Assembly (NCBI GenBank): GCA_038045185.1
Contig: JBBSYO010000007.1
Location: forward strand, 18 to 64,017
Length of the DNA stretch: 64,000 nucleotides
Direction: 5' to 3'
Origin: Nanobdellota archaeon
GTDB lineage: Archaea > Nanobdellota > Nanobdellia > Pacearchaeales > GW2011-AR1
Shown: piece after piece, positions 33,001 through 36,000 of the stretch
Numbering within the stretch: the stretch's first letter is position 1
Layout: each line of letters begins with the position of its first letter
Position numbers: made by a program

Positions 33001-36000
33001 TCCCTTTCAGGAAAATCTTAAGTCTCTACGGGGATCACTTTCGTGATCTTCCCTCGGGGTTACCATACTATTCGTTTCAATAGTAAGACTTCACCGATAT
33101 GAGTCGATTTTATTTTTCATATCCTCGCGGATATGCAACGCCGCTATTTTTGATACAGAAAACAAACGTAAATTTTGTTTGTTCTTCTGTCTCACCAAGT
33201 CTTTGACTTGGAGATAGTTGCGACACTCACAGAATATAATTCCGTGGTGACTCCAGCTTTGATAAGCTGAAGTTTTGGTACAGGATTCGTTGCTTATTGT
33301 TTACGTTCTTAACCCAGCTAACGATCCCTTTTAATGCGTGAACTCCGACACCCTTGGTGGCTTATGCACCACCAGGATAGGAAGAGCCGACAGCGATGTA
33401 CCAAACCGCGCCGTCAATATGGACTATCGGGCGCGACAAGCCTGTTATCCTTGAAGTACCTTTTCTGTCACACACGAGCCCTATTAAAAAGCTACGTGGG
33501 GTCGCTAAGCCCGACTTTCATCTCTGCATCTCGTGCTGTTTGAGATACAGTCAGACAAGCTTTTGCCTTCGCACTCAACTCCAGATTTCCAACCTGGATG
33601 AGCTTGTCATTAGGCCCTACCGATATCTTTTCGGCAGGGTGCCGCCCCAGCCAAACTGCCCGCCTGCTGGTGTCCCCCGTGAGGGGTGAGCAGTGCCGAG
33701 AAAAATGAGGAGTGTTACAGGGGCGCTCCGCTCACGCCGAAGCATGAGCATCGATGCTCCTCCCTACGCTATGCATTTCTCTTGACACCACAACAACAAG
33801 TTGCAGTAAAGGTTTACAAGGTCTTCGCTTCCCACTAGGCGACACCGGCATTTTCACCGGTAAGTGGGTTCAGAAGGTTCTGGCTCGGGACAGTGACCAC
33901 CTCGTTGAACCATTCATGCACGTCGCCATTCAGACGACAAGGCATTACGCTCAATTTGATGTTACACCGTCTTAGTTAAAGAATTAAAATTATTGCTTGA
34001 AGCTTTTTGTGATTCCAACAATTCCAATAACAATGATTGCTATTGCAATTATCCACGCCAAAGGCCCTTGAGTTACATCACCCAATGCTTGTATTCCAAG
34101 CAATGGTAGCAACAAAAGAATTCCTATAAGCGTTGTTAGAATCGCGTATATTTTGCTTTGCATAATTCATAAAGAATTGTTTTCTTTTTAAATCTTTGGA
34201 AAACGGTTCTTGACTTTTGTCAAGTCATTATATCGCTATAATGTTCGGACTGTATCTTCATTAATAATTATGCCCAAAAACAATCTTTTCAAGATACAAT
34301 TCTTGTTTCTGAACATCGTATCTAAAAACGATTCTTAACTTTTCTATCCTGATTCTGCAAAATTTATTCAAATTGAAGTGCAGATGTTTATATCTATCAG
34401 GATTTTCAGCAACTTCCTCAAATTTCTTCTTGATTCTATCTTGGAAATTTTTATCCAATTTTCTAAAGTCTTTTTCAAACTCTTTAGTTGGAAGAATTTT
34501 ATAATTCATCCCAGTTTGCAAAGTCTCTATTTTTGATTTGCTCTTCGGATATCTTTAACGATTCCATGAACTCTTTATTGTTGGAAAGTTCAATGGATTC
34601 CATTATCAAGTCTAACTCTTCTTTTAACTTCATCAGTTCGATAAAAGCCTTTCTATCAATTGTTATTGTTTCCATAGATTCAAGGGGAAATACTACTATT
34701 TATGTTTTTGGTTTTAATGTCAAGCGTTCAGTCTCTGAGGATTCTAGAAAATTATTGTTTAATTAATGGCTGAAGCTCTTGATTTCTCTTAGATTTCCAA
34801 TATCCCCTAAATTTTTCATATGTCGGATTTAATTCCAGAAGATCTTCTTGTGGAACTTGATTGCCTTCATATAATGCGCTAAATCTATTTGGATATTTTT
34901 TAGAAAGATGCTCGTGAAAAGATCTCACTCCTTCAGGCATTCCTGCTGGAGGTGTATGAAATATTCCATCACAACATGCTTCCATCATTCCTAAAATTTC
35001 TTCAAGTTCTCCAAACGTAAGATTCATAAATTTTTACACTTATGTTTCCTTTTAAACTTTTCTCTAGTCTTTCCTGCTGATTGTCTGCACTCATAAATTT
35101 TCACATAGTGCCTATTTTTTAAAACTATGTATTATGAGATACTCAGATGTTCCAGCATATAGCTTGATTTTCTCCTGTTCTTCTGTTTATCTTTTGTAAC
35201 TATGGTTGCTCGGAGCGTTTACTCGCGAGAGTAACCGTAAGGCAGTTCCTTATGGTTCAACCTTAAGCATTCTTACTCCAATTACTTGGAGAGTCGGACT
35301 TTATCATAATCAATTTTGTTGATTCTCGACGTAAAGTCTCTGAGGGTTACCTAAAATCTGTTCCATAGTATATTTTCTTTTTCCCTTACCGCCTTTAGTT
35401 TTTTGAAAAACTAAATTAAGTAATTTTTCGAATCCTTCTTTTGTGTCTTGCTCATTATTATTGAGCCCAGCAACAATTTCAGAAAATTTCTGAAATGCCG
35501 GCCGTTTTACAATTAAAGGATATTTTTGGAAAAAAGGAATTACTTGTTCAGTAAGCCTTCTTCTATTCTTTTCAACCAAAATCAATTGATTCGGTTGTCC
35601 AGATTTGACAGAAATCTTACCACATCCCAATGCTTTTTGTAAAATCATTAGAATTTCCCCATTATCTTTATGCTGACTTATTTTAAATTCCGGAGTTATA
35701 GTAAATCCAAATTTAGTCCACGGTGTTTTCCGTGTTTGAATTGGAAATGCTCCTTCTCCATCTACAAAGCCTGCAAGATGATGAGATATGAACTCTAGGT
35801 TCTTCCCTGCTGATTGTCCTTGCGCTAGATTCATTTTCACTTTTTCAAGTAAAATCTAACTTAAATAATTGTGTTTCAATTATTCAGGAGTTCCAGCAAA
35901 TAGTCGAGTTTATCGAGGCCCTTAGTATCGCTAAGCCTCATAGTTAGGCCCGCCGTTTCACGGGTCTTAGCCCCCTTGTACGGAGGTTTGAAACACCGCG

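Follow-up and report, generated by a model that had tools for sequence, protein, structure and literature searches.

Why should an archaeal 23S rRNA gene contain a toxin-antitoxin (TA) pair, and what keeps it there? The question arises from an insert in the large-subunit (LSU) rRNA gene on contig JBBSYO010000007.1 of a Nanobdellota archaeon, which we analyzed within a 64,000-nucleotide (nt) stretch, here called the window. All coordinates refer to this window, and the rRNA operon and its intron features are read on the minus strand. The archaeal operon lies on that strand, with the LSU gene at 32580..37809, the small-subunit (SSU) gene at 39523..42418, and tRNA-Ala in between. An earlier note had described the insert as a composite of two group I-like cores, one with a LAGLIDADG gene and the other with a RelE-type TA pair in the equivalent position. 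It had placed five open reading frames (ORFs) on the rRNA sense strand, and all five indeed lie on the minus strand within the 23S gene. The best explanation overall, to which we assign a probability of roughly 0.6, is that the insert comprises two group I introns, one of which carries the TA pair as selfish cargo that acts as an addiction module. The structural description as a whole (two group I introns and the anatomy of their cargo) is, in our judgment, nearly certain.

How is the insert built? It consists of two separate group I introns, at LSU positions L1923 and L1931, which are set apart by the 8-nt exon CUUAAGGU. The layout, in the direction of transcription, is as follows:

35934..35947, minus strand: end of the 5′ exon, the 3′ strand of helix 69 (...CUAACUAUGAGGCU), with E. 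coli U1923 as its last base (Rfam LSU alignment)
35934..35939, minus strand: P1 exon strand of intron 1, GAGGCU, which pairs with the internal guide sequence (IGS) GGCCUC and places a U.G pair at the splice site
35268..35933, minus strand: intron 1, group I, L1923, 666 nt, with its terminal guanosine (omegaG) at 35268, before CUUAAGGU
35260..35267, minus strand: mini-exon CUUAAGGU, 8 nt, E. coli 1924-1931 (from single-intron relatives and the table of Nawrocki 2018)
within 35260..35267, minus strand: P1 exon strand of intron 2, UAAGGU, which pairs with GCCUUA
33952..35259, minus strand: intron 2, group I, L1931, 1308 nt, with omegaG at 33952, before AGCGUAAU
33938..33951, minus strand: first part of the 3′ exon, AGCGUAAUGCCUUG, from E. 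coli 1932 on

The E. coli numbers L1923 and L1931 are presumably correct; they come from the helix 69 sequence of E. coli, together with the Nawrocki table. A BLAST search of the sites against E. coli genomes, made for the numbering, gave no match. For the intron sites in the SSU gene and in LSU domain I, only window coordinates are used.

The earlier note had seen no exon sequence between the cores, which is incorrect, and the composite insert that it proposed gives way to two independent introns. It had suggested a search of related genomes for sites with a single core, and such sites exist. In L039, L040, and L045 (labels of the form L0xx denote compared loci on other contigs, fetched through toxin homology), only L1931 is occupied, and the exon reads GAGGCUCUUAAGGU directly before the intron. 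In L073, only L1923 is occupied, and the intron is directly followed by CUUAAGGUAGCGUAAU. The uninterrupted 8-nt exon in these relatives argues for two independent introns, and a twintron or nested-intron model is ruled out on the same grounds.

The arrangement is found identically on at least 24 contigs from several samples and several assemblers, one of them 348 kb long, which argues that the insert is not an assembly artifact. Exact protein matches to the locus come from Hainich groundwater metagenomes and from one NCBI metagenome-assembled genome (MAG), and homologous proteins and loci carry the DPANN names Nanoarchaeota, Pacearchaeota, and Woesearchaeota.

Are both halves of the insert group I introns? 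Homologues of the toxin led us to loci at which this gene pair lies, at other rRNA positions, amid the same RNA motifs. Twenty introns (both 23S introns and the 16S intron of the window, and 17 introns from other contigs) could be aligned over their core segments without gaps. In this alignment (A1), helices P3, P4, P5, P6, P7, P8, and P9, including the P3/P7 pseudoknot, are 96.1% paired, whereas a control with slid partners gave 30-39% pairing. Compensatory changes occur in 29 of the 42 pairs, a value reached by none of 500 shuffles; all 7 pairs of P9 show such changes, as do P3, P4, P5, and P6. The P7 pairs 91-146 and 93-145 are G-C in all 20 sequences and the A between them is invariant, a pattern that matches the predicted G-binding signature of P7, a conserved G-C pair beside a bulged A. 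The covariation thus bears out the two homologous group I cores that the earlier note had proposed.

The intron boundaries have the expected features as well. A U.G pair is present in P1 at both 5′ splice sites (GAGGCU.GGCCUC in intron 1 and UAAGGU.GCCUUA in intron 2), and the guide sequence varies in relatives (GUCUUA, GCUUUA, and GCCUUC) yet keeps its pairing. Both introns end in omegaG (...AAUG before CUUAAGGU in intron 1 and ...AAUUG before AGCGUAAU in intron 2), and a G occupies this position in every L1931 relative read. The motifs quoted in the earlier note are present within 2-3 nt of the positions it gave. It had, however, taken GACUAUUUGCUGGAAC and AGCUAUAUGCUGGAAC as partners of the J8/7-P7 motif; both are the 5′ strands of P3-J3/4-P4, the classical "P" element. 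The reading of GACUAUUUGCUGGAAC as such a partner was rejected because this motif lies only ∼25 nt from the exon and because covariation assigns it to P3/P4. The actual P7 5′ strands, CAGAGACU, are at 35331..35342 in intron 1 and at 34726..34737 in intron 2.

The search with a group I covariance model that the earlier note had recommended was only partly successful. In narrow scans, Rfam Intron_gpI (RF00028) matched the 3′ half of intron 1 (32.4 bits, E 2.9e-7, 35275..35360) and, partially, the 3′ end of intron 2 (16.8 bits, E 0.011, 34226..34275). Both 23S introns remain below the Rfam gathering threshold of 50 bits, whereas the homologous 16S intron gives a full match of 50.1 bits. The narrow scan returned no match on the 5′ half of intron 2, and neither did a scan of 33700..36200 as a whole. 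This shortfall is consistent with loop inserts of 300-500 nt that defeat the model, and the narrow scans together with the covariation settle the group I question.

The missing match in the whole 2.5-kb region, and the fact that LAGLIDADG genes are typical of archaeal rRNA introns of the bulge-helix-bulge (BHB) type, could be taken as signs of a BHB intron, of an intervening sequence that is not spliced out, or of a chimeric assembly. This explanation is effectively refuted by the strong covariation across the full group I core, by the exact U.G and omegaG at the boundaries, and by the recurrence of the arrangement in at least 24 contigs. A simple minimum-free-energy check, in which the 5′ and 3′ junctions of each intron and of the insert as a whole were co-folded, likewise revealed no BHB motif, and intron 1 formed the P1 hairpin. 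The BHB intron as a candidate is ruled out, as the 3-nt bulges and the 4-bp helix were not seen in these co-folds.

What, then, is the gene pair in intron 2? The pair and the RNA strands that enclose it are arranged as follows:

34710..34751, minus strand: P6 3′ strand, J6/7, P7 5′ strand (R) CAGAGACUG, P3 3′ strand GCUUGA, and P8 5′ strand CAUUAA, assigned by covariation in A1
34696..34709, minus strand: element AAAAACAUAAAUAG, resembling a B recognition element (BRE) and TATA box, which starts 29 nt upstream of the antitoxin ATG and is common to intron-borne and free copies
34499..34675, minus strand: putative antitoxin, 58 residues, which overlaps the toxin start by 11 nt and co-occurs with the toxin
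34261..34509, minus strand: predicted RelE-fold toxin, 82 residues, with its stop codon within the P8 3′ strand
34243..34264, minus strand: P8 3′ strand UUAAUG, J8/7, and P7 3′ strand (S element) GAAGAUACAGUCC, assigned by covariation in A1

The C in the P7 3′ strand GAAGAUACAGUCC compensates the G of the P7 5′ strand GACUG. The assignment of the larger protein to the RelE/ParE-type toxins in the earlier note was confirmed by a profile search, in which it matched Pfam ParE_toxin (PF05016) with 34.9 bits against a cut-off of 23. An AlphaFold (AF2) model based on a 30-sequence alignment has a predicted local distance difference test (pLDDT) score of 83.6. The top 8 Foldseek matches of this model are RelE structures with template-modeling (TM) scores of 0.76-0.82, ahead of HigB and ParE, and the best PDB matches are the RelE proteins of M. 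tuberculosis, T. thermophilus, and E. coli. By sequence profile, the best match is RelE3 of M. jannaschii (E 0.024). The toxin family comprises 481 cluster representatives.

The 58-residue ORF is called an antitoxin because of its position, its 11-nt overlap with the toxin gene, and its strict co-occurrence with the toxin, with which it is co-conserved at all intron-borne and free loci. Its family returned nothing significant in Pfam or PDB profile searches and only sub-threshold matches to DUF2683 (5 of 17 members, best E 0.0065). None of the cargo proteins matched a PADLOC defense model. Judged by profile and model comparison, the pair is a putative RelBE-type TA operon in the P8 loop of intron 2.

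The cassette starts directly behind the P8 5′ strand with the BRE/TATA-like element and ends at the toxin stop within the P8 3′ strand. R and S lie 481-498 nt apart where the TA pair is intact, compared with 34-41 nt in introns without one, which have a simple P8 hairpin. With or without the pair, the P8 stems do not otherwise differ: the 16S intron of the window, with an empty P8, and the intron of L059, with a TA pair at the same 16S site, share the stem AGCUAAUU/AAUUAGU.

Is the pair confined to introns? The TA operon is an autonomous cassette of ∼460 nt that also occurs free in DPANN chromosomes. Free-standing pairs were found after rpS7, after rpS2, near the pyruvate phosphate dikinase (PPDK) gene, and in a virus-like region, and they are also present in MAGs of Parvarchaeum, Woesearchaeota, and Methanosarcinales. 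No intron motifs were found near the free-standing pairs at the loci examined. The earlier note had treated the occurrence of the pair outside introns, with flanking repeats of its own, as a sign of independent insertion; the cassette does occur outside introns, but no flanking repeats were seen. The intron-borne copies are distributed over the following sites:

LSU L1931 (∼10 distinct loci): the window, L037, L039, L040/L085, L043, L045, L048/L049, L056, L060, L065, L070, and L071
LSU L1923: L046 and L073
LSU domain I: L028
SSU, site of the window's 16S intron: L026/L027/L034, L057, and L059
SSU, second site: L035/L036

The cassette thus occupies the same P8 loop of homologous introns at at least five rRNA sites, and this recurrence argues for more than a one-off hitchhiker. 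Median ratios of nonsynonymous to synonymous substitution (dN/dS) in intron-borne copies are 0.16 (toxin) and 0.23 (antitoxin); free copies have 0.17 and 0.21, respectively, and dS is >1. The intron-borne cassette is thus under purifying selection. The toxin is truncated and the antitoxin intact in L039, L073, and L037, a form of decay that would fit an addiction module. When the window is compared with L043, which also has two introns, P1-P4 are 97% identical, intron 1 is 86% identical, and the exons are 91-96% identical, whereas identity falls to 72% in the TA genes and to ∼50% in the P5 tip, the P6 loop, and the 3′ tail. This mosaic suggests an exchange of modules by recombination.

Does the cassette take the place of a homing endonuclease? 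No LAGLIDADG gene was found in any of the 14 TA introns examined. Among six neighboring introns that had not been picked via the toxin, four carry a LAGLIDADG gene without a TA pair, and the other two (the window's 16S intron and the second intron of L035) carry a PIN-type pair without a LAGLIDADG gene. Every one of these 20 introns has a LAGLIDADG gene or a TA pair, and none has both. The earlier note had placed the TA pair in the slot of the endonuclease. Taken intron by intron, the TA pair does replace the endonuclease, but not physically: the LAGLIDADG gene lies in P6, overlapping P4′/P6 and P7/P3′, and the TA pair in the P8 loop. The P6 slot of intron 2 is filled by a 91-residue ORF.

How could a TA pair help an intron to persist? 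The cassette would be selfish cargo, carried along by the intron and exchanged between introns by recombination, for which the near-invariant R and S motifs on either side of P8 could serve as natural homology arms. A cell that deleted the intron would cease to make the labile antitoxin and would be arrested by the remaining RelE. Such addiction would delay the disappearance of an intron left without its homing endonuclease, an effect that is plausible although unproven. An addiction role of the cassette is possible, with somewhat less than an even chance, and neutral hitchhiking in a loop that tolerates inserts is almost as probable.

In its pure form, the hitchhiker explanation holds that the P8, P6, P2, and P9 loops are neutral landing sites, or safe harbors, in very compact genomes, where any small self-expressed cassette could lodge and travel along, and that the intron gains nothing from the TA pair. 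Free-standing copies of the cassette exist in many genomes, and dN/dS does not differ between the two settings. What speaks against pure hitchhiking is that two unrelated TA families (RelE-type and PIN-type) are both found in these introns, that a TA pair and a LAGLIDADG gene never share one of the 20 introns, and that the P8 junction of the RelE cassette is unchanged across at least five rRNA sites although dS exceeds 1. Taken together, this evidence leaves pure hitchhiking a serious contender that we nevertheless regard as doubtful.

Further points, beyond the Rfam shortfall and the lack of a significant match for the antitoxin family, weigh against selfish TA cargo with an addiction role as the preferred explanation, and in part they favor the hitchhiker. 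The frequency of TA cargo is biased, as the loci were fetched by toxin homology and the unbiased comparison set consists of six introns. The introns also hold cargo other than TA pairs (orphan ORFs, a membrane-peptide gene that is free elsewhere, and a tRNA-like gene), which shows that the loops are generally permissive "safe harbors." DPANN genomes are rich in TA pairs, so that chance capture is plausible. Finally, intron-borne and free copies are interspersed in a neighbor-joining tree, which is weak, the proteins being short. The window pair groups with a free Parvarchaeum pair in this weakly resolved tree, and the interspersion would fit repeated capture or escape.

Might the TA pair instead benefit the host, through abortive infection or another defense, or through growth control tied to rRNA transcription, and be placed in the rRNA gene for its expression level? 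The purifying selection on both genes and the position of the cassette on the sense strand of the most strongly transcribed operon would be in line with this. It is nonetheless very improbable, given that PADLOC defense models find no match, that the cassette has its own putative promoter and functions at many unrelated chromosomal sites, and that decayed toxins are common.

Returning to the preferred explanation of selfish cargo and addiction, a broader version can be formulated, which we put forward as tentative and rather doubtful. The rRNA introns of DPANN archaea would be modular carriers, with P2, P6, P8, and P9 as promoter-equipped slots, and TA operons of the RelBE and PIN types would be a persistence device after loss of the endonuclease that makes precise intron loss lethal or costly.

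What would such a device mean for intron biology? Mobile group I introns are thought to persist only through repeated homing; once an intron is fixed, its endonuclease decays, and the intron is eventually lost. If our reading is true, a TA operon in P8 would provide introns with a second route to persistence, by addiction rather than invasion, and hence with an escape from the classical cycle of invasion, degeneration, and loss. The operon has been kept over long divergence, at several rRNA sites, in introns that are free of an endonuclease. In addition, putative internal promoters and protein genes lie inside the rRNA genes of ultra-small archaea. As such genes are usually hidden in "rRNA" features, rRNA gene calling, 16S/23S surveys, and MAG annotation are affected.

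Type II RelBE modules stabilize mobile elements such as plasmids, integrative elements, and superintegron cassettes. The pair in intron 2 resembles them in its small antitoxin-then-toxin operon with overlapping genes, in the RelE fold, in the occurrence of a free chromosomal cassette, and in the proposed post-segregational or addiction logic. It differs in that its carrier is a group I intron in an essential single-copy rRNA gene, its antitoxin lacks a recognized family, and its toxin is a prediction.

Group I introns of subtype IB4 at LSU/1923 and LSU/1931 have been described in DPANN archaea, including a tandem 8 nt apart in KP308720.1, and all Pfam-annotated intron ORFs in that survey are LAGLIDADG endonucleases (Nawrocki, Jones & Eddy 2018, PMC6125680). 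Those introns share with the window their hosts (Woese-, Pace-, and Nanoarchaeota-like), the two sites, the tandem with the 8-nt exon, and a LAGLIDADG gene in one intron. The window differs in its L1931 intron, where a RelBE-type TA operon and two further small genes are present and a LAGLIDADG gene is absent. IStrons, in which a group I intron is fused to an IS200/IS605-type transposon (PMC4227781), are a further parallel: a ribozyme bears selfish cargo other than an endonuclease in a peripheral region, and its insertion is harmless to the host gene. In IStrons, however, the cargo is the transposase TnpA/TnpB, which confers mobility, whereas the TA pair confers none, and the hosts in the window are archaeal rRNA genes.

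In rRNA insertion sequences of the bacterial candidate phyla radiation (CPR), 90-99% of annotated ORFs are homing endonucleases (Tsurumaki et al. 2024, PMC11270868). Like those of the window, these introns come from ultra-small groundwater organisms whose 16S and 23S genes are rich in group I introns, and their LAGLIDADG genes are mostly single-domain; unlike the window, they are bacterial, not archaeal. The word "toxin" does not occur in the main text and one supplementary file of that study. The earlier note had known of no TA cargo in rRNA introns, and none was found in group I or rRNA introns in the searched full-text literature, the coverage of which excludes subscription journals. The L1923/L1931 tandem with a LAGLIDADG gene is already known, whereas the TA cargo is apparently new, although an earlier description may exist.

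How is intron 1 organized? It is probably a conventional mobile intron with a predicted LAGLIDADG homing endonuclease in P6. Its elements, placed by covariation in A1, and its gene are as follows:

35909..35920, minus strand: P1 IGS
35887..35908, minus strand: P3/P4 5′ strands
35802..35816, minus strand: Q (P4 3′ strand)
35310..35834, minus strand: gene for a predicted single-domain LAGLIDADG homing endonuclease, 174 residues from the ATG (174/176-residue ORF), in the P6 loop
35331..35342, minus strand: R (P7 5′ strand)
35319..35330, minus strand: P3′
35308..35324, minus strand: P8
35293..35307, minus strand: J8/7 and P7 3′ strand
35276..35291, minus strand: P9 with GUAA loop
35268, minus strand: omegaG

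The LAGLIDADG gene recognized in the earlier note matches Pfam LAGLIDADG_1 (PF00961) with an E value of 2.4e-19, and its translation contains the motif LAGFVDGEG with the acidic residue present. Sequence matches in the PDB are I-SmaMI, the I-OnuI family, and I-CeuI. The 5′ end of the reading frame runs through P5′/P4′/P6 and the 3′ end through P6′/P7/P3′ into P8, so that the Q and R elements of the intron sit within the ends of the frame.

Frameshifted LAGLIDADG calls were observed in L002, L003, and L004, contigs that are 99.4-99.9% identical with few indels (strain variants or assembly errors). The locus L046, from the same groundwater site, has a TA-bearing, LAGLIDADG-free intron at L1923 in place of the LAGLIDADG intron of the window. 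Its 5′ exon (L046 1..330 compared with window 35933..36018) is 100% identical over 86 nt, and the two show that one site is polymorphic for its intron variant.

Intron 2 lacks a homing endonuclease gene and offers three cargo slots: P6, the P8 loop, and the P9 tail. Apart from the P8 region, its features are as follows:

35166..35243, minus strand: peripheral 5′ domain, with IGS GCCUUA at 35235..35243 and P2 hairpin at 35216..35237
35204..35215 with 35166..35175, minus strand: P2.1 helix CUCC/GGAG, from sequence comparison with L039, L040, L043, and L045
35057..35167, minus strand: core 5′ half, with P3 5′ strand UCAAGC, P element CUAUAUGCUGGAAC, P5 with extensions, Q ACAAUCAGCAGG, and P6 5′ strand CUAGA
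34752..35027, minus strand: 91-residue orphan ORF in the P6 loop (helix CUAGA/UCUAG around the ORF), with a TATA-like box at -29
34209..34243, minus strand: P9 hairpin with GCGA tetraloop, with compensatory changes in P9, and P9a hairpin
33990..34163, minus strand: gene, in the P9 tail, for a 57-residue peptide with two transmembrane segments; TATA-like box at -29

Neither the 91-residue nor the 57-residue ORF belongs to a significant Pfam family. A single homologue of the 91-residue ORF was found (75% identical, dN/dS 0.26), and the P6-slot ORFs of homologous TA introns are mutually unrelated, 69-121 residues long, and without Pfam matches. The conserved DPANN small-protein family to which the 57-residue membrane peptide belongs is encoded by free-standing genes in other genomes.

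In nearly all cargo genes examined, the start of a TATA-like box precedes the ATG by 29 nt: the antitoxin genes at nearly all intron-borne and free loci, the P6-loop ORFs, and the membrane-peptide gene of the window. Each cargo gene would thus have its own putative archaeal BRE/TATA promoter and a leaderless mRNA. From the position of the putative promoter, ∼29 nt before the ATG, we infer that the cargo may be expressed independently of rRNA splicing.

The sole homologue of the 91-residue ORF lies in L097 (1..721), a low-coverage contig, in surroundings that resemble an intron. The R motif of this locus is degraded (CAAAAACU compared with the usual CAGAGACU), and it is followed by a different, 90-residue ORF and not by the TA pair. 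The P6 loops of ∼12 loci (e.g. window 35027..35060) share a conserved AAAG(A/U)UUUAAA(U/A)A element right behind the P6 5′ strand. This element lies 29 nt upstream of whichever unrelated ORF fills P6, like a built-in promoter of an exchangeable slot.

What does the related 16S intron carry? It is built as follows:

39997..41531, minus strand: group I intron of the 16S gene, homologous to the 23S introns, 1535 nt, Rfam Intron_gpI 50.1 bits, P1 GUGCGGU.GCCGCAC
41503..41512 with 40791..40800, minus strand: P2 stem
41221..41460 and 40791..41219, minus strand: second TA-like pair, in the P2 loop, consisting of a 79-residue protein and a PIN_2 protein (PIN_2 3.8e-22), respectively
40247..40600, minus strand: 117-residue orphan ORF in the P6 loop
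40063..40133, plus strand: tRNA-like gene in the P9 tail, antisense to the rRNA, Rfam tRNA model 47.9 bits

P8 of this intron is an empty hairpin. The tRNA-like gene has the anticodon CUC by alignment, and ARAGORN made no call. Tails homologous to the tRNA-like region (73-78% identical) are present in introns at two other rRNA sites, L028 ∼4995..5070 and L043 ∼1840..1915. A PIN-type pair is found in another SSU group I intron, at L035 5882..6656, the P8 loop of which contains an 86-residue ribbon-helix-helix (RHH)-like ORF and a 141-residue PIN protein (PF01850, 3e-10); two unrelated TA families thus use the same ribozyme loop.

Further observations concern the rRNA operon itself. Without both introns, the LSU gene (1974 nt removed) is still ∼270 nt longer than the Rfam archaeal model. 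A 571-residue gene (42801..44516, plus strand) adjoins the operon; it is conserved in all contigs of the same population and has only faint Pfam matches (helix-turn-helix and HNH-repeat). Between the 16S gene and tRNA-Ala, in a spacer of 1.2 kb, Rfam detects a group II intron D1-D4-1 element (39036..39121, minus strand) with 37.4 bits, above the gathering threshold of 35.

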